DNA of 61,168 nucleotides, counting the filler. It is 8 parts of 8 records of this genome, joined end to end, with 100 filler letters (N's around TTAATTAATTAA, not from the genome) between each part and the next. Parts side by side here need not be neighbours in the genome. Positions count along the whole stretch, not along the records: positions 36,122 to 42,941 come from SRR31156797_45874; 7 more parts are not named here. The stretch is one strand, 5' to 3'. Below, piece after piece: positions 6,326 to 55,887 of the stretch. Position 1 is the stretch's first letter; every line of letters begins with the position of its first letter. Below the pieces are notes generated by a model. The model saw only the letters and a list, made by a program, of their open reading frames with translations, was not told where the DNA came from and made no database searches. A program made the position numbers and the translations under genes.

Positions 6326-6425
6326 NNNNNNNNNNNNNNNNNNNNNNNNNNNNNNNNNNNNNNNNNNNNTTAATTAATTAANNNNNNNNNNNNNNNNNNN
6401 NNNNNNNNNNNNNNNNNNNNNNNNN
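6326..6425. other. Artificial contig linker (N run-TTAATTAATTAA-N run)
   Basis: All-frame stop linker; base composition shifts abruptly across it. Confidence 0.98.
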
Positions 6426-15055: not shown

Positions 15056-15155
15056 NNNNNNNNNNNNNNNNNNNNNNNNNNNNNNNNNNNNNNNNNNNNT
15101 TAATTAATTAANNNNNNNNNNNNNNNNNNNNNNNNNNNNNNNNNNNNNNNNNNNN
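15056..15155. other. Artificial contig linker
   Basis: N run-TTAATTAATTAA-N run. Confidence 0.98.
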
Positions 15156-26037: not shown

Positions 26038-26137
26038 NNNNNNNNNNNNNNNNNNNNNNNNNNNNNNNNNNNNNNNNNNNNTTAATTAATTAANNNNNNN
26101 NNNNNNNNNNNNNNNNNNNNNNNNNNNNNNNNNNNNN
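26038..26137. other. Artificial contig linker
   Basis: N run-TTAATTAATTAA-N run. Confidence 0.98.
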
Positions 26138-36021: not shown

Positions 36022-36121
36022 NNNNNNNNNNNNNNNNNNNNNNNNNNNNNNNNNNNNNNNNNNNNTTAATTAATTAANNNNNNNNNNNNNNNNNNNNNNN
36101 NNNNNNNNNNNNNNNNNNNNN
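36022..36121. other. Artificial contig linker
   Basis: N run-TTAATTAATTAA-N run. Confidence 0.98.
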
Positions 36122-36380
36122 CTGCGCCCCATACGGGTGAACACCCGAATGCCCCCAGGGATATGCGGCGGCTGTTTTCGTCAGAATTTCAGAACCTGTG
36201 CTGGACAGGGATATGTACCTGGTTTCATGATTGGATCTTACCGGAAACCTGATGATGTCGGCCCTTGGATTGATCGATCAGGTATCTGGGATCAATATCA
36301 TTAAAGTCATCATGTTATCCGGCTATAAATCGGACGGGTTGGTCGGATATCATTACAAATGTGGAGATATCTGAATCCGT

Positions 36381-36431
36381 ATATCATGCATATCATGCGG
36401 CTAAACGGAACCATTCAACCACATGTTCGGC
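36381..36431 (+). mobile_element. attI-like integron recombination site
   Basis: ATTCAAC (RYYYAAC, 36413-36419), 5 bp, GTTCGGC (36425-36431); tandem ATATCATGC repeats at 36381-36398. No integrase is visible on the contig. Confidence 0.55.
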
Positions 36432-36479
36432 TACAAGAACAAACTGTATCGGAAAGCTCAATAGAAAGGGAAAAATAAG

Positions 36480-36941
36480 GTGATAGAATATATCACAGCC
36501 ATTTCATCTATGATAACTGCAGGGGTAGCCATTTGGCTTTTTTTTTATGGTCGACACCAGCGACGTTTCGATATTATGGAGCAGTCGTTCGATGTACTGC
36601 AACGGATAAACGAAAAAGCACTTGAAAATGATCAAAATGTCTTAGCTGCAGTTCTATCTGCTAATCCTGAAGATAAGATGAGCGCCGATGATGCAAGAAT
36701 AATTTATTTTCATTATATGAGGATAAACCGTATATTTAGAGCCTATGAATATCACCTTGGTGGATTCATTTCTTATAGGCAACGCGATCGTATTGCTCGA
36801 CCACAAATACGAACACTTGTTTCCGTTAAAGACAAGCTACCTGCAATAATACAAAGAGGATATCCAGAAGATTATTTACACTATTTAATGACTGAACTTG
36901 GTAAAGAGAAACTGCCTGATAAGATGAATCAGAGCGAATAA
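36480..36941 (+). CDS. Hypothetical cassette protein with N-terminal TM helix
   Basis: GTG start after AAGG; bounded by GTTCGGC and GCCGAAC; no family recognised. Confidence 0.7.
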   Translation: MIEYITAISSMITAGVAIWLFFYGRHQRRFDIMEQSFDVLQRINEKALENDQNVLAAVLSANPEDKMSADDARIIYFHYMRINRIFRAYEYHLGGFISYRQRDRIARPQIRTLVSVKDKLPAIIQRGYPEDYLHYLMTELGKEKLPDKMNQSE

Positions 36942-36945
36942 ATAA

Positions 36946-37007
36946 GCCGAACCTTTTGCTTTCACAGCGACGGCAAAAAACCGCCGCACGCGAAGCATAC
37001 TTTCACT
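36946..37007 (+). mobile_element. attC-like site (right core degenerate)
   Basis: GCCGAAC 4 nt after the stop is the exact reverse complement of GTTCGGC at the cassette start; imperfect arms GCTTTCAC..CGGC / GCCG..GCGAAGC; the expected GTT is missing. Confidence 0.7.
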
Positions 37008-37024
37008 AAAGCTTAGAGGGAAAA

Positions 37025-37573
37025 ATGAATCAAATTGATTTATTACAAAGACTTTATTTGAAATTGCCTGAAGTTCAAACTTGGATAGAGAAAACTATAG
37101 ATGCTAATGAACATCGAGCAATATCTGTAATAGACCTTTCATTTCCAAAATTAAATAAGGTGTTTCCAGAAGAGATACTTTCTCAATCGAAGGTGGTATT
37201 CACTAAAAGAAAAGTTCCTTTCCCTTCTCTTAGCAGTATGGGCATGCCCGAATTTTCTGCGACGGAAAATATGCAAATGGCGGGTATTACATATAAAGAT
37301 ACTTTTTTTGTAAAAGAAGAATATAAAAGTGAGAGCCTTTGTTTTCATGAGATGGTTCATATTGTTCAGTGGGAAAGGCTCGGAGTGAATAATTTTTTGT
37401 TGGCTTATGGGGTAGGATTGGTTCAATTTGGCTATGCAGGCAGCCCATTGGAAAAAATGGCTTATTCGTTACAAAAAGATTTTGAATGCTCAATAGTTTC
37501 CAATAATGTTATCAAGACAATACAAGAACAAACAGATGAGATTTGGAGTTCAGTTGCATCATTTTTCAGTTAA
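37025..37573 (+). CDS. HExxH zincin-like protein (DUF4157-like)
   Basis: AGITY..FF, FHEMVHIVQW, GY..SPLEKMAY; RBS GAGGG. Confidence 0.7.
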   Translation: MNQIDLLQRLYLKLPEVQTWIEKTIDANEHRAISVIDLSFPKLNKVFPEEILSQSKVVFTKRKVPFPSLSSMGMPEFSATENMQMAGITYKDTFFVKEEYKSESLCFHEMVHIVQWERLGVNNFLLAYGVGLVQFGYAGSPLEKMAYSLQKDFECSIVSNNVIKTIQEQTDEIWSSVASFFS

Positions 37574-37640
37574 GTTTGAGAGAGAATTCGTTAAGAGTAG
37601 GCAATCTTGAAGAAAAGACCACAGAGACTAAGGTGATAGG

Positions 37641-38513
37641 ATGAAAAATATTAATGGAAATTGGTCAGGGAGAATTACTGGTACTAATGCTGGTAATGTA
37701 TTTATTGAATTGCAACAAAACGATTCAAAACTTAATGGAATAGCAAGAATTAATGACACAACATTTGGAGTGGTTGTCTACAATTTTTCAGGAGAATTAA
37801 ACGATAATTCTATTTCTATTAATTTATTGCCGGATGGAAGCTCTTTGAATCAAACAGTGATGCAAGAAATTCTTGTAAATAACCAACCCGTCAAGATTCA
37901 AGCCCCAGTAATCAACTATGGGAATGTTAAACTCAATGGAAATCTTATAAATGAGAATACTATTGAAGGGACATGGCAATCAACAATAGGTACAGGCGGA
38001 AATATTTTTTTAACTCATCAGAGAACAAGTTCTTTAAATAAAAATCATGGAACAAATAAAGACAAAAAACAAAAAATGATTTTTATCAGTTACAGCCATG
38101 AAGATAAAGATCATTTAAAGAGATTACATGTCCATTTAAAACCACTACAAAAGAATGGATTGGTAAATGTGTGGGATGATACAAAAATTCAAGCAGGTCA
38201 AAAGTGGAAGGAAGAAATAGAGCTTGCATTATCTAAAGCTGCAATCGCAATTTTAATAATTAGTGCCGATTTTTTAGCATCAGATTTTATCATTGATAAT
38301 GAGCTTCCTCCAATATTACAGAAAGCTGAATTAGATGGGACGCGAATACTGCCTGTTATTCTTAAACCTTGCAGATTTTCGAGAGAAAAAAATTTGTCCC
38401 AGTTCCAAGCCTTGAATTCTCCAGATAAACCTATGCTTGCGATATCTGAGATAGAGCAAGAAGCAATCTGGGATAAATTATCGAATATAATTGAAACAGA
38501 GATAAATAGATAA
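37641..38513 (+). CDS. TIR-domain protein with N-terminal beta-rich domain
   Basis: C-terminal TIR: IFISYSHED, VWDDTKIQAGQKW, ISADFLASDFI..NEL (Glu at the catalytic position); N-terminal ~130 aa with GNWSG / GTWQS strands. Confidence 0.88.
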   Translation: MKNINGNWSGRITGTNAGNVFIELQQNDSKLNGIARINDTTFGVVVYNFSGELNDNSISINLLPDGSSLNQTVMQEILVNNQPVKIQAPVINYGNVKLNGNLINENTIEGTWQSTIGTGGNIFLTHQRTSSLNKNHGTNKDKKQKMIFISYSHEDKDHLKRLHVHLKPLQKNGLVNVWDDTKIQAGQKWKEEIELALSKAAIAILIISADFLASDFIIDNELPPILQKAELDGTRILPVILKPCRFSREKNLSQFQALNSPDKPMLAISEIEQEAIWDKLSNIIETEINR

Positions 38514-38572
38514 TGAACGGAGATTCTACCCAAAAAAAACTGGAGAGTAAATTAAGCCATTTTGGGACATAT

Positions 38573-38623
38573 TTCCAAGCCAGCAAAATGCACCGGACGA
38601 GCTGGTGATTTGCAGTGTTATAT
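38573..38623 (+). mobile_element. attC-like site
   Basis: GCAAAATGCACCGG / GCTGGTGATTTGC imperfect arms with an unpaired G, ending in GTTATAT (38617-38623); left core degenerate (TTCCAAG). Confidence 0.65.
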
Positions 38624-38642
38624 TCCGAAAAAAAGGATCTAT

Positions 38643-38758
38643 ATGACTAAAAACAATTTCAGACAATTCAACCCAATAGTCTGGAAACGGAAGAGCAAAA
38701 GCTTTTTATTAAAGTGTTGCTTAATATTCGAGGAGAAGTCAGGAATGACCAGTGGAAC
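38643..38758 (+). pseudogene. Possible frameshifted, truncated remnant of a cassette gene
   Basis: AAGGA RBS and ATG 19 nt after the attC; adding one A to the A run gives MTKKQFQTIQPNSLETEEQKLFIKVLLNIRGEVRNDQWN up to the inverted repeat. Confidence 0.3.
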
Positions 38759-38824
38759 TTGGTGTCAGGTCTTAAAATATATGCCTTTCAGTTTTATAGG
38801 TGATAGTTCAAGACCTGCCTCCAA
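38759..38824. repeat. Inverted-repeat pair of the GGGTCAGGTCTTG..CAAGACCTGACCC REP/REPIN-like class
   Basis: TTGGTGTCAGGTCTTAAA (38759-38776) versus TTCAAGACCTGCCTCCAA (38807-38824): 15/18 complementary, 30-bp spacer. Confidence 0.6.
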
Positions 38825-38850
38825 TTTTCCATACAAGGCCAATTAGAAAC

Positions 38851-40035
38851 ATGATTCTTAAATGCGAAAAATGTCAGACTTCTTTTTCTTTCGACAATAA
38901 CAAATTAGGTACAGTATCTATAAAAGTTCGGTGCTCAGTTTGTAGAACTATATATTATCTCGATCTCACCTCACTGAGGACCAAGGAAAAGAAAACAAAG
39001 GATTGCGCAACAGCAGTTATAGATAATAATCAATATTCGGGTGACTATGCTTACTATACCGAAACTGAAGAAGAGGTTCTCGGCCGGAGACAGTATTTTG
39101 AATTTCGTGATGATTCGATGTTTCGTTCTTCAAAACGAGTTGATCCTATCAGTGATGAACATCAGGATGTTGGGATTGATCAAGTTCAAGCAGAGTACGA
39201 TGGAAATGAGCAGCCATTCCTGAAAAAGAAGGCTGAGCAAGACTTCAAATCAAGAAAGGTTAATGACAAAGCTGACAGCGACGAATTTCTTTCTAATGAC
39301 AGTTTTTATCCCGTCCCAGAGTTTGAAGTTGATGATGATTTCTCTCTGTTCTATAGCGACCACAGTGATAATGTGGCGACGGATAAAGATCACTATAACC
39401 TTGGGAACGAGTCATATGAATGGTTTATAGATGGCTTAGATCCTTATCAGGAAGGGCTCTCAAATGAGGATGTCTGGGAGGTCGAAACTGATGCTGACGT
39501 TCCTGAGGAAGAAAGAGCTTATCAGATAGCGGAGTCGACGTGTCAACTTATGCATTGGACAGGGAAGAATAAAATTGACCTACTCGCTAAAATCTTTATT
39601 GAAAACGGGTGGTCTTTAAACAGAACCCGGCTACTTAAAGAGATCAAGGCAGGAATGACTTATGAAATGGTCAAACTCGCGGTAAAAATCAGGGCACTGT
39701 GGAATAAACATGCTGAATTCAAAACTGGCTATTATAAGGGTTGGATAAGTGACGTTCATACGAATGTTGAATGGCATTTTTGTCATACCCTTATTTCAAG
39801 TTATAGTTCGTTGCCCAGTGAAGATGAAATCGAATCCTACTTGTTAGATTTGTTTGATGGCTGGTATTGTTCAGATCTATTGCAAAAATTATTTCTGACA
39901 TTCTATGATTATATTAACTATAGGACCACAAGTGGCATCCCTTTCGATATGATTCCGGATATCCCGTTCGAGGAGAACCCAAGCAAAACGTTCCTTTATT
40001 ACACTAATCCCAATCACAGCTTTTTGGAGTTTTAG
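38851..40035 (+). CDS. Hypothetical protein: MJ0042-type zinc ribbon, acidic linker, uncharacterised Trp-rich helical domain
   Basis: MILKCEKCQTSF..KVRCSVC; D/E-rich middle; stop directly abuts the helicase ATG. Confidence 0.75.
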   Translation: MILKCEKCQTSFSFDNNKLGTVSIKVRCSVCRTIYYLDLTSLRTKEKKTKDCATAVIDNNQYSGDYAYYTETEEEVLGRRQYFEFRDDSMFRSSKRVDPISDEHQDVGIDQVQAEYDGNEQPFLKKKAEQDFKSRKVNDKADSDEFLSNDSFYPVPEFEVDDDFSLFYSDHSDNVATDKDHYNLGNESYEWFIDGLDPYQEGLSNEDVWEVETDADVPEEERAYQIAESTCQLMHWTGKNKIDLLAKIFIENGWSLNRTRLLKEIKAGMTYEMVKLAVKIRALWNKHAEFKTGYYKGWISDVHTNVEWHFCHTLISSYSSLPSEDEIESYLLDLFDGWYCSDLLQKLFLTFYDYINYRTTSGIPFDMIPDIPFEENPSKTFLYYTNPNHSFLEF

Positions 40036-42858
40036 ATGAATAAGAAAGAAATACAAGTCCGCAATGGTTGTTGTGTTCGAACTGATAAAACTGATTTCGG
40101 AATAGTTTCAGAAGTTGATCCTTCCAATGGTTACATATGGGTTAAATGGTTTAAAAAAGGAACAGTAACAAAAGAGAACGAGGCTACGCTATATTGTGGT
40201 TTTCAAATCGGGATGGAGGTCCAGGACGTTCCTTTATCCAGAACAAGAACAACGTTGGGTGAAGGGATTGTTATTGAGTGCAGAAGGATTGGAAATAGGG
40301 AGCAGGTCCTTGTTGATTTTTTAGAATCAGGTGAAAAACATTGGCTTCCGTTTCAAAATTTGAAATTAATCGAAGGCGTTCAACAAAGGTTTGTGTTGAA
40401 CAAAATCGGAGGTGAAGACAATGCAGAACGATTCCGGCTTAGGAGTCTCGCCTATGCAATAGAAATCTGGAATGAGAATACCGGATCCCTGTCAAATTTA
40501 CACATAGACCCCTTGCCTCACCAGATTATGTTAGTTCACCATATACTGAAATCGGGTAATTTGAATTGGTTGATTGCTGATGATGTCGGGCTCGGGAAAA
40601 CTATAGAGGCGGGTATGCTGCTGTCAGCATTAATGCATCGCAAGAATTTCCGACGAATATTGTTAATTACTCCTGCAGGGCTAACCCGACAATGGAAAGA
40701 CGAGCTTCATTATAAATTCGGAATGAATGATTTTCGAATATACGGAGACGATTTCGTTATAAACGAACCAAGGGAGTGGAAACTTTACGACAACGTCATC
40801 GGTTCTATAGACCGGTTTAAATCTGAGCAACACGTTGATCTTTTAATACAATCCGGGAAATGGGATATTGTTATTTTTGATGAAGCACATTCACTGAGCC
40901 GAATTCAATATGGGATGAAATTTGAAAGTACCGAAAGGTTCAGGTTAGCGGCAAGTCTTAGAGCTCAAACAGATAATATTATCCTTTTGACAGCAACCCC
41001 CCACCAGGGAAAACAGGATAAATTTCAGGCACTACTTGAACTGTTGAGACCGGAGTACAAGACTGAAATTCGTAATATTGGGAATGATCCTGAAATTATC
41101 GGGGAGATGGTATACCGGAACAACAAATCTACAGTCACGGATATAGACGGGCAATTGATATTCCGGGGGAAGCATTCCAATTCAATTCCAATTAACCTGA
41201 CTCCTGAAGAAATTGATTTTGAAAGGCAGCTTGTAAAATACATTAAACGGGGTTACGAAGCCGGAAGAAAGAAAGGGGGGATGACAGGACGTGCTATTGG
41301 TTTTGTCATGACTATATATAGAAAACTTGCCGCTTCAAGCATCTCGGCAATTAGCACCGCACTTATAAAAAGATATACCCGGCTTGAAAAAAAAAGTATT
41401 GATACAGCAATAAACTCATATTTTCTGAACCAGGCGGATACAAAATATTACGAAAGTGAATTTGAAGAAAGTTTGGATACATCCGGGGCCGAATTCTTTG
41501 TCGGTGAGAAGGTACAGTTGGCCGAGCTGATAAAATACACGGAAATCATTCTGGCAGCGGAGAATAAGATATCCTTATTCGTGGACAATATTATCAAAGC
41601 AATCAAGAGCAAAAACGAAAAAGAGAAGATCGTTATTTTCACAGAGTATCTCGCCACGCAAAATGCGCTTTCACATTTGTTAGCCGAGGGATACGGATCG
41701 GAGTCAGTCAGCCTGATTAACGGTAATATAAAGCATGAGGAAAAAAGAGATGCTATCGAAGCATTTGAAGACCACGGTGATTTTTTAATTTCAACTGAAG
41801 CTGGCGGAGAAGGTATTAACCTTCACAAAGAATGCCACATCCTGATTAATTTTGATCTACCTTGGAATCCCATGCGAATCGTCCAGCGCATAGGTCGTCT
41901 ATACAGATATGGCCAAAAGAAAAAAGTTGTTGTTTTCAATATGTTTTCGCCTCAATCCTTGGACGGAAGCATTATGAGGCTTCTTTATCAGAGAATAGAT
42001 AGTGTTGTTAGAGATATGGCAATATTAGGCGGAGAATTTAAACCCGGATTGGAATCTGAGATTTTAGGTGAGCTTGCTGAATTCATTGATATTGATGAAA
42101 TATTGGAAAATAGCCTACAGGAAAATTTGAAACAAACTGAAGAAAAGATAAAGAAGGCAATAGAAAAAGCAAAGATTGCAATAAAAAAACAAAGAGACTT
42201 ACTTGAATATGCCTCGGGTTTCGATCCCGAGTCTGCTGCTGATGAGTTGAGAATTACAATAGATCATCTTAAATCTTTTGTCCAAGGTATGCTGGCCTAT
42301 ACGGAATGCGAAGTTGTTGACCAAAAACATAAAGGCGAAGTTTGGAAAATTGAGCTATCCGATAAGGTCAGAGACGAACTGAAGATCAGAAAACAATACC
42401 TACGTGTTACTTTTAATAGAGATATAGCACTAAGAAGCCGGGATGTTTCAATGATGGATCTGGATAATTCTTTTCTCCAATATCTAATAAAGACGGCAAA
42501 AGCGTATTCCTTCGACGGTAGAGTTTGCAGCCTGAAGGGTATTGATAAAAACGCCGTGGTAACTACCATGTTAAGATGGCAAAACGACCAAGGCCTCAGA
42601 ATGCGACAGGAATTTTTTATTTCCCTTGTTGGCGCGGACAACTCTGTAGAAGCTAACGGCAAAGAAATTTCCGAATGGTTGTTAAAGTCGTCTGAAATAA
42701 ACAGTCATCAAATCAAGTACTCGAAAGAGTGGACTATGCGACATTTTAAGGCTGCGTTACATTCAATGGACTTAAGGCTTTCTGAAATATGCAATACTGA
42801 GCTTCATCCGGAAAACAGGCAAGTGGTTAGTGCCGCTTTCGTTTCTGAGTATGAATAA
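40036..42858 (+). CDS. SNF2/RapA-DrmD-like helicase/ATPase
   Basis: PLPHQ, LIADDVGLGKTIEAG, FDEAH, LTATPHQG, STEAGGEGINL, LPWNPMRIVQRIGRLYR; N-terminal SH3/Tudor-like strands. Confidence 0.9.
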   Translation: MNKKEIQVRNGCCVRTDKTDFGIVSEVDPSNGYIWVKWFKKGTVTKENEATLYCGFQIGMEVQDVPLSRTRTTLGEGIVIECRRIGNREQVLVDFLESGEKHWLPFQNLKLIEGVQQRFVLNKIGGEDNAERFRLRSLAYAIEIWNENTGSLSNLHIDPLPHQIMLVHHILKSGNLNWLIADDVGLGKTIEAGMLLSALMHRKNFRRILLITPAGLTRQWKDELHYKFGMNDFRIYGDDFVINEPREWKLYDNVIGSIDRFKSEQHVDLLIQSGKWDIVIFDEAHSLSRIQYGMKFESTERFRLAASLRAQTDNIILLTATPHQGKQDKFQALLELLRPEYKTEIRNIGNDPEIIGEMVYRNNKSTVTDIDGQLIFRGKHSNSIPINLTPEEIDFERQLVKYIKRGYEAGRKKGGMTGRAIGFVMTIYRKLAASSISAISTALIKRYTRLEKKSIDTAINSYFLNQADTKYYESEFEESLDTSGAEFFVGEKVQLAELIKYTEIILAAENKISLFVDNIIKAIKSKNEKEKIVIFTEYLATQNALSHLLAEGYGSESVSLINGNIKHEEKRDAIEAFEDHGDFLISTEAGGEGINLHKECHILINFDLPWNPMRIVQRIGRLYRYGQKKKVVVFNMFSPQSLDGSIMRLLYQRIDSVVRDMAILGGEFKPGLESEILGELAEFIDIDEILENSLQENLKQTEEKIKKAIEKAKIAIKKQRDLLEYASGFDPESAADELRITIDHLKSFVQGMLAYTECEVVDQKHKGEVWKIELSDKVRDELKIRKQYLRVTFNRDIALRSRDVSMMDLDNSFLQYLIKTAKAYSFDGRVCSLKGIDKNAVVTTMLRWQNDQGLRMRQEFFISLVGADNSVEANGKEISEWLLKSSEINSHQIKYSKEWTMRHFKAALHSMDLRLSEICNTELHPENRQVVSAAFVSEYE

Positions 42859-42909
42859 ATCAATAAGCCAAATGCACCGGACGAGCCGGTGCATTTGGAA
42901 ACGTTCTCG
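42858..42909 (+). mobile_element. attC-like site related to the copy at 38573
   Basis: CCAAATGCACCGG-ACGAG-CCGGTGCATTTGG then GTT at 42903; shares the 17 bp AAATGCACCGGACGAGC with 38586-38602. Confidence 0.65.
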
Positions 42910-42941
42910 GAGGCTGAACACCTTAGTGATAATTAAGGTAT

Positions 42942-43041
42942 NNNNNNNNNNNNNNNNNNNNNNNNNNNNNNNNNNNNNNNNNNNNTTAATTAATTAANNN
43001 NNNNNNNNNNNNNNNNNNNNNNNNNNNNNNNNNNNNNNNNN
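42942..43041. other. Artificial contig linker
   Basis: N run-TTAATTAATTAA-N run. Confidence 0.98.
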
Positions 43042-49820: not shown

Positions 49821-49920
49821 NNNNNNNNNNNNNNNNNNNNNNNNNNNNNNNNNNNNNNNNNNNNTTAATTAATTAANNNNNNNNNNNNNNNNNNNNNNNN
49901 NNNNNNNNNNNNNNNNNNNN
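49821..49920. other. Artificial contig linker
   Basis: N run-TTAATTAATTAA-N run. Confidence 0.98.
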
Positions 49921-55787: not shown

Positions 55788-55887
55788 NNNNNNNNNNNNN
55801 NNNNNNNNNNNNNNNNNNNNNNNNNNNNNNNTTAATTAATTAANNNNNNNNNNNNNNNNNNNNNNNNNNNNNNNNNNNNNNNNNNNN
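55788..55887. other. Artificial contig linker
   Basis: N run-TTAATTAATTAA-N run. Confidence 0.98.

Follow-up and report, generated by a model that had tools for sequence, protein, structure and literature searches.

Introduction

RapA-like SNF2 motors are core parts of the defence systems DISARM, BREX type 3, Hma/BR and ARMADA. A RapA-like plan is described for BrxHII and for the helicases of the DUF499-centred BR (Hma) systems in main-text sections of PMC12839542, and passages of that paper and of PMC12458937 present ArmA of ARMADA as a helicase resembling BrxHII that has a RapA (Swi2/Snf2) domain, standing beside a methylase and a YprA helicase. A DrmD-like SNF2 helicase is also included in ietHAS (ietAS plus this helicase; Liu-DS4), for which passages of PMC13069673 provide a precedent of an SNF2 ATPase as essential accessory in a system without a methylase. 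Here, a 61,168-nt stretch of DNA (referred to as the window) was analysed, in which one contig carries two adjoining genes encoding an acidic protein (the partner) and a RapA/DrmD-like SNF2 ATPase (the helicase). The two genes constitute a conserved, co-inherited and horizontally spread two-gene module across several phyla, and the pair is real and, as a variant of the SNF2-based defence modules, probably undescribed.

The helicase has the full-length plan of RapA (HepA of E. coli; 6BOG, 8T0L and 8SPG), composed of barrel(s), an SNF2 core and two C-terminal alpha+beta domains. RapA, however, has no dedicated upstream partner, and the helicase is an extra, sparsely distributed paralogue beside the true RapA. 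DrmD, BrxHII and ArmA have the RapA-like plan and the defence-island context in common with the helicase, whereas the other components of their systems are missing. No DrmA, DrmB or methylase of DISARM was found on the 6.8-kb contig, which ends 83 nt past the helicase, and DrmA was seen only in a related locus that lacks the partner (L009). PglZ, BrxC and a PglX-type methylase of BREX are absent from the contig, with PglZ and BrxL preceding the pair in one locus only (L002), and neither BrxC nor the YprA helicase of ARMADA is present in the window or in at least eight related loci. The partner family is no listed component of DISARM, BREX or ARMADA in PADLOC v2.0.0. For Hma/BR, which comprises the helicase-nuclease HmaA, the DUF1156 methylase HmaB and the DUF499 ATPase HmaC, the HmaA model matches the helicase over only part of the model; HmaA ends in a PD-(D/E)XK nuclease, whereas the helicase has none and aligns to RapA right to its C-terminus. 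The window has neither HmaB nor HmaC, and among the 16 partner-bearing loci the two genes occur in G276 alone, with the other 15 lacking them. With ZorD of Zorya, the match is confined to the C-terminal helicase lobe (residues 518-635; E values of 5.7e-28 and weaker), and no ZorAB is present. The partners in ietHAS are a protease and an ATPase, whereas the partner here is an acidic and apparently non-enzymatic protein. The main-text sections of PMC12839542 describe no upstream acidic or TPR partner for the BrxHII and BR helicases, and the pair is not mentioned in passages of the Hma-embedding preprint 10.1101/2024.01.29.577857 or, by term search (0 matches), in 10.1101/2025.09.30.679545.

Results

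The partner and the helicase are linked across genomes

Thirteen genome loci were found via the helicase, 12 of which have DNA upstream; the remaining one (L007) begins inside the helicase gene. An open reading frame (ORF) matching the partner profile was located directly upstream and on the same strand in 10 of the 13 loci (E 2e-55 to 3e-9), and a degraded partner remnant behind stop codons was detected in L001 with a wider profile (E 4e-30). With this remnant included, the two genes are adjacent in 11 of the 12 loci with upstream DNA. Both plasmid copies examined, those of Nitrosococcus halophilus (pNHAL01) and Deinococcus actinosclerus, also carry the partner; the upstream protein of D. actinosclerus is 1,300 aa long, and its final ~120 residues match the partner domain (E 4e-28). 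When 400 sampled genomes of one class were searched with the partner profile, three were positive, including one already known, and the helicase was the next gene in all three. The linkage that an earlier note on this DNA had set out for checking was thus confirmed from either gene.

The zero-gap coupling read in the same note is also present, as the partner stop codon is followed directly by the helicase start (TTT TAG ATG). Stop-to-start gaps of -4, -4, -1, 0, 5, 25 and 26 nt were observed in seven of 12 loci, and in the remainder the gap is larger or the start uncertain. The identity of the partner C-terminal domain tracks that of the helicase (Mantel r 0.66, n = 12), and none of 5000 permutations reached this r. 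The sole helicase-found locus without a partner, L009, is nested within the helicase clade on the tree, and its helicase also lacks residues 1-103; from this one case, the N-terminal barrels of the helicase may be where the partner docks.

The helicase has the fold of RapA but differs from housekeeping RapA

The AlphaFold2 model of the helicase (predicted local distance difference test score, pLDDT, 82.4; predicted template modelling score, pTM, 0.79) gave RapA as the top Foldseek match (6bog_A, E 4e-30), followed by the next family at E 6e-16. In the VIA comparison, RapA aligned over 688-693 residues, from model residue 75 or 114 to 940, with Z 22.1-23.2, and was the only structure aligned beyond model residue 734. 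RapA is also the closest solved structure by sequence (8e-31), at an identity of ~16-19%. A split RapA, in which the neighbouring gene supplies the missing part, was considered and rejected, as the helicase alone covers RapA residues 49-967. The GLGKT (residues 185-189) and DEAH (282-285) motifs are invariant or nearly so among 99 full-length relatives, and by these conserved ATPase motifs the helicase is an intact motor.

Despite this fold, the helicase scored under every curated cut-off: 172.1 bits against 576 for RapA (NF003426), 324.5 against 610 for DrmD (NF038317), 199.9 against 500 for DpdE and 64.8 against 1500 for ZorD (NF041790). A genuine RapA is encoded elsewhere in two of five pair-carrying genomes (G002, 1051 bits; G003, 1021 bits), and no gene above the RapA cut-off was seen in the other three helicase-bearing genomes. 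Because of the low RapA score and the true RapA genes found elsewhere, the idea that the helicase is simply the orthologous RapA, raised in the earlier note as a challenge to its own proposal, failed. The best PADLOC models for the helicase are BrxHI/BrxHII (4.8e-94), DrmD (1.1e-88) and HmaA (5.8e-86), and a quick tree placed 17 helicases in a clade apart from RapA with a Shimodaira-Hasegawa-like approximate likelihood ratio test (SH-aLRT) value of 96. The helicase is grouped here with DrmD, BrxHII and HmaA, all of them defence helicases.

More than 120 full-length homologues with at least 49% identity were found, the nearest named one being from Desulfoluna sp. (63%). No nuclease family was matched by the helicase in Pfam, and no C-terminal D..(D/E)xK set was found among its conserved residues when these were read by eye. 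The helicases of a Desulfobacteraceae metagenome-assembled genome (MAG; L006) and a Planctomycetota MAG (L007) are almost identical, with branch lengths of 0.027 and 0, which means either a very recent transfer or a mis-binned contig.

The partner family is defined by a Trp-rich C-terminal domain

The two CxxC motifs, the very acidic linker and the Trp-rich helical domain that had been noticed in the partner were all recovered (Table 1). The CxxC pairs are C5/C8 and C29/C32, and residues 1-36 scored 33.4 bits against the TIGR02098 cut-off of 20.9, which places them in the zinc-ribbon family; the top Foldseek match of this ribbon is the ZitP zinc finger, with a probability of 0.98 but an E of 0.21. 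Within the linker, pLDDT falls below 50 at residues 46-59, 92-118 and 135-182. Its acidity is a family-wide property of the partner: where sequence was sufficient (104 members), the 120-residue stretch that precedes the C-terminal domain has a net acidic excess of 10 or more charges in 103, with a median of 32% D/E and 5% K/R.

The C-terminal domain contains six Trp, of which W284, W308 and W338 are invariant across 111 aligned partner sequences, and R222, A223, Q225, A227, F249, W254, G268, A277, P322, E326 and F351 are nearly invariant. This conservation pattern suggests no catalytic site. A word-based search found only five close relatives, whereas a profile built from these five matched 369 cluster representatives at E<=1e-3, of which 265 were at E<=1e-10, and in every case the match ran through the C-terminal domain; the family thus comprises at least 369 clusters at 50% identity. 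The N-terminus, in contrast, varies among 105 members: TPR families were found in up to 15, a zinc ribbon in eight, KOW in two and an Ig-like domain in one, with none in the rest.

The C-terminal domain has no model in Pfam, NCBIfam or PADLOC and none in PHROGs at the default threshold (one marginal match, E 0.0056), and it has no sequence relative in the PDB, where a profile search with the family returned TPR proteins only, through the variable N-termini of the relatives. Foldseek found nothing for its fold at E<=1e-3 in either the PDB or BFVD, the best Z of the VIA wide search was 6.2, which is below the stated noise level of the tool, and the protein Atlas gave no usable match. No longer fused forms of the domain were found in a word-limited search, which is weak evidence, and partner-pattern scans of genome, metagenome and viral contigs returned nothing, the patterns being too specific. 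As judged from these searches, the partner is without a recognisable enzymatic domain.

Defence genes surround the pair in nine of 16 loci

Linkage to defence islands, which had also been put forward for checking, was observed: nine of 16 partner-bearing loci have recognised defence genes at a distance of no more than a few kb. A TIR gene is the neighbour in the window and in L001. In a type 1 BREX locus (L002), PglZ and BrxL are directly upstream and the pair comes directly after brxL, and in L005 the neighbour is GajA (1.5e-222). A type I restriction-modification (R-M) operon stands directly upstream in G002/L010, with PDC-S11 downstream; in G002, hsdR, hsdM, hsdS, partner and helicase are all on one strand, and hsdS and the partner are 5 nt apart. 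L011 has PDC-S31 and PIN/IrrE, L012 has AbiLi/RloB, NERD-UvrD and an AddAB-like pair, and pNHAL01 has Dsr1, HNH and a restriction endonuclease. In G276 (L030; G276:C2:3203000-3222999), HEC-01A, HmaB (1541 bits) and the HEPN-DUF499 HmaC (1170 bits) are followed by the pair and then by MazF and an integrase; the pair occupies the position expected of HmaA, of which no copy was found within 20 kb. The partner-less helicase of L009 (5974-13737) is flanked by two GmrSD_N genes on one side and, on the other, by a GajB-like UvrD helicase with DrmA (4e-225). Mobile-element marks (integrase, TraG, insertion sequence or plasmid) were found in five loci.

The pair also stands alone, because no methylase, DUF499, PglZ or DrmA/B/C was seen within ~4-9 kb on each side in eight loci (L004, L005, L006, L008, L012, L014, L015 and L029). 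Of the partners claimed to be absent from the letters, no methylase was found on the 6.8-kb contig of the pair, and no ZorAB is present. Neither the partner nor the helicase was matched in 50,697 phage records.

A repeated hairpin element is found on each side of the pair

An element of ~45-60 nt was found on both sides of the pair. Its upstream copy lies 51 nt past the TIR stop codon and 224 nt before the partner start, and in its downstream copy a perfect 13-bp stem encloses a 5-nt loop (42866-42898), this hairpin starting 8 nt past the helicase stop codon. The 26-nt core copies are 92% identical and 4284 nt apart, with two occurrences in the window against none expected (100 shuffles); the two window copies share just ~33 nt. 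A 22-nt core is present in nine metagenome contigs, where the chance expectation by our own rough estimate is well under one, and the repeat is co-oriented with the flanking genes in most of them. A bulged G was observed in the upstream copy and nine metagenome copies, whereas the downstream window copy has no extrahelical base. The flanked genes include toxin-antitoxin modules (L019, L020 and L024), an IS91 transposase (L017), an SdhB-like gene (L018) and TrmO (L021). A conserved stretch of ~70 nt that contains a CCCCAAAA...TTTTGGGG stem precedes the upstream copy in the window and several of the metagenome copies (L016, L018, L021 and L022), and the hairpin together with this stretch (window 38501-38627) may be a larger structured element, either a small RNA or REP-like (repetitive extragenic palindromic).

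The covariance model detected no copy in 15 related helicase loci (L001-L015), Rfam gave no match on the contig of the pair at E<=1, and the other two intergenic gaps of this contig are without such a repeat. The repeat is read here as an intergenic element, lineage-specific and either REP-like or terminator-like, and not as a property of the two-gene module. The earlier note had described the pair as an attC-bounded unit of ~4.3 kb. The repeat and its spacing are real, but the attC label did not stand. In attC sites, R'' (RYYYAAC) and R' (GTTRRRY) flank an imperfect stem; neither window copy has these core sites at the right places, and the downstream hairpin is perfect. Identification of the repeat as an attC site, or of the unit as an integron cassette, is not supported.

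Organization of the window and of the contig carrying the pair

The window consists of eight contigs artificially joined by seven N44-TTAATTAATTAA-N44 linkers, and therefore a neighbourhood that spans a linker is meaningless. GC content ranges from ~33% to 63% between the contigs, and the bin may contain mixed organisms. The contig of the pair has 6,820 nt and ~37% GC (~34-40% along its length), with neighbouring contigs at 44-60%, and encodes five genes, all on the + strand (Table 1). The TIR gene is counted as context for the partner-helicase unit. The 182-aa protein upstream of it, which has an HExxH motif, matched no family in Pfam, NCBIfam, PADLOC or PHROGs. The partner start was placed at the ATG at 38851 rather than the upstream GTG at 38800, in agreement with the homologue starts. 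A 94-aa ORF at 38562-38846 was rejected as a gene, since it crosses the repeat and the same peptide arises from ORFs over the element elsewhere; a possible 67-aa reading frame (38643-38846), whose ATG is inside this ORF, remains in the 243 nt that separate the repeat from the partner start. A scan for promoters and terminators gave nothing above shuffles.

A second low-GC contig (6426-15055), surrounded by contigs of 50-60% GC, encodes a 1,286-aa leucine-rich-repeat protein. Its C-terminus resembles what we take to be a Bacteroidota type IX secretion sorting domain.

Table 1. Features of the window. Positions count along the whole window; residues count along the protein concerned.
Feature	Position	Strand	Residues or core	Evidence
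Contig of the pair	36122-42941			
Unknown protein, 153 aa	36480-36941	+		ORF
Unknown protein, 182 aa	37025-37573	+		ORF; HEMVH (HExxH) motif
TIR-domain gene, 290 aa, ThsB-like	37641-38513	+		PF13676 7.8e-16; PADLOC ThsB 4.5e-22
Upstream repeat copy, bulged hairpin	38564-38627	+	core 38582-38607	covariance model R1 61.8 bits; fold weak, z = 0.28
Partner gene, 394 aa	38851-40035	+		ORF; homologues 43-73% identical over full length
Partner, MJ0042-type zinc ribbon	38851-38958	+	1-36	two CxxC pairs; PF13717 7.5e-09
Partner, acidic, mostly disordered linker	38986-39492	+	46-214	45 D/E against 17 K/R
Partner, Trp-rich helical C-terminal domain	39493-39945	+	215-365	pLDDT >90; defines the family
RapA/DrmD-like SNF2 ATPase (helicase), 940 aa	40036-42858	+		ORF; PF00176, PF00271, PF04851
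Helicase, two N-terminal beta-barrels		+	~13-111	AlphaFold2 model
Helicase, SNF2 core		+	~150-730	SNF2-rel_dom, Helicase_C, ResIII (Pfam)
Helicase, RapA-type C-terminal alpha+beta domains		+	~730-940	AlphaFold2 model
Downstream repeat copy	42848-42911	+	core 42866-42891	R1 59.9 bits; DNA fold -20.5 kcal/mol, z = -5.4
Linkers	6326-6425, 15056-15155, 26038-26137, 36022-36121, 42942-43041, 49821-49920, 55788-55887			

Discussion

The pair is read here, with a probability of roughly 0.55, as a conserved and horizontally spread two-gene module whose function is to protect against phages or other DNA that invades, and as judged from its genes and their neighbours it is a credible candidate immune module. 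No description of the pair was found in PADLOC v2.0.0, Pfam, NCBIfam, PHROGs or the texts and passages of the literature searched. The proposal of an undescribed two-component defence system is thus upheld in the linkage, the context and the lack of a prior description; its limitation to two components is less certain, as further components are possible past the contig end.

Several observations weigh against a role in defence. The pair has no effector domain, neither protein contains a recognisable nuclease or methylase, and the invariant residues of the partner (W, R222, Q225 and E326) imply no chemistry. Seven of the 16 partner-bearing loci have no recognised defence neighbour, several of them being cut by contig ends, and the contig in the window stops 83 nt past the helicase stop codon and is too short to show any methylase or ATPase beyond it. 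The host is uncertain, given the differing composition of the contigs in the window. Shared host ancestry could partly explain the co-divergence of partner and helicase, and the helicase tree came from a quick search with long-branch warnings.

For a defence module of this kind, the following course of action can be proposed. The partner would dock on the helicase through its C-terminal domain, and its variable N-terminus would do the sensing or targeting. By mimicking nucleic acid, the acidic linker would hold the DNA-binding groove of the motor closed until a trigger arrives, after which the freed motor would translocate on DNA. It might then strip polymerases and other proteins off the invader, or feed the DNA to neighbouring restriction or modification machinery, as could be the case where copies are joined to Hma, BREX or type I R-M operons. 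The full form of this proposal, a stand-alone and nuclease-free immune motor in which the acidic tail of a sensor-adaptor blocks a RapA-like translocase until an invader releases it to strip proteins, and which serves as a plug-in for BREX, Hma and type I operons, is put forward tentatively and is itself rather unlikely.

It is also unlikely that the pair is no more than the helicase part of a larger system already described (Hma/BR, BREX, DISARM-like or type I R-M), of which the window would hold a fragment cut by the contig end. Individual loci do fit such a view: in G276 the order is HEC-01A, HmaB and HmaC and then partner and helicase with HmaA missing, in L002 the pair comes right after brxL, in G002 it is co-stranded 5 nt past hsdS, and in L009 a helicase of the clade lies near DrmA. 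The associated systems differ by locus, however, which fits a portable add-on or a stand-alone unit better than a fixed subunit, and the eight loci listed above have none of the methylase, DUF499, PglZ or DrmA/B/C genes. The concern that the pair is a piece of a described system applies to some relatives, which lie in or at the end of Hma (G276), BREX (L002) and type I R-M (G002) operons.

Far less probable is an integron-type cassette, in which the two-gene unit would be mobilised by an integron integrase through the flanking attC-like sites. As attC sites do, the repeats form short imperfect palindromes at gene ends in the orientation of the genes, with a related hairpin on each side of the pair and a bulged base in the upstream copy; the core recurs in nine metagenome contigs, mostly co-oriented and in three between toxin-antitoxin modules (L019, L020 and L024), and by our own count most of 11 aligned copies have YYYAAC upstream and GTT downstream of the stem. 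The full RYYYAAC and GTTRRRY cores are nevertheless missing in both window copies, one of which is a perfect hairpin without an extrahelical base, and the element measures ~48 nt from core to core, shorter than the 57-141 nt known for attC sites. No integrase lies on the contig, short as it is, and no such site stands between any of its three upstream genes; moreover, the element is also found behind housekeeping genes (SdhB-like in L018, TrmO in L021) and is absent from the 15 related helicase loci. A role in anti-restriction or in maintaining plasmids and integrative elements, in which the acidic protein would mimic DNA to counter host restriction, appears the most improbable of all: the acidic stretch is kept in 103/104 members, and copies lie on two plasmids and near an integrase or TraG, but the 50,697 phage records gave no match, the copies share the orientation of the host R-M, BREX and Hma operons in which they lie, instead of opposing them, and we know of no precedent for a conserved ATPase among DNA-mimic anti-restriction proteins. 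It is likewise very doubtful that the pair acts in transcription, with a helicase that, once bound to RNA polymerase, recycles or remodels it and a partner that acts as regulator, in a physiological rather than immune role. RapA is the sole solved structure that matches the whole model, including the second N-terminal barrel and residues 730-940, and a KOW motif is found in 2/105 partner relatives; yet the score is under the RapA cut-off, true RapA coexists in the genomes, and the pair is distributed sparsely and patchily across phyla and plasmids in defence-island surroundings. The RapA plan is, moreover, shared by the defence helicase BrxHII and those of the BR system, according to passages of PMC12839542 and PMC12458937.

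If the pair is a defence module, its clade, with a dedicated acidic and apparently non-enzymatic partner and often no methylase or nuclease nearby, presents RapA-like motors in a minimal two-protein setting. This setting makes it possible to study what activates such motors and how they act upon invading DNA. Definition of the partner family, for which Pfam, NCBIfam and PADLOC hold no model, would better annotate many defence islands.

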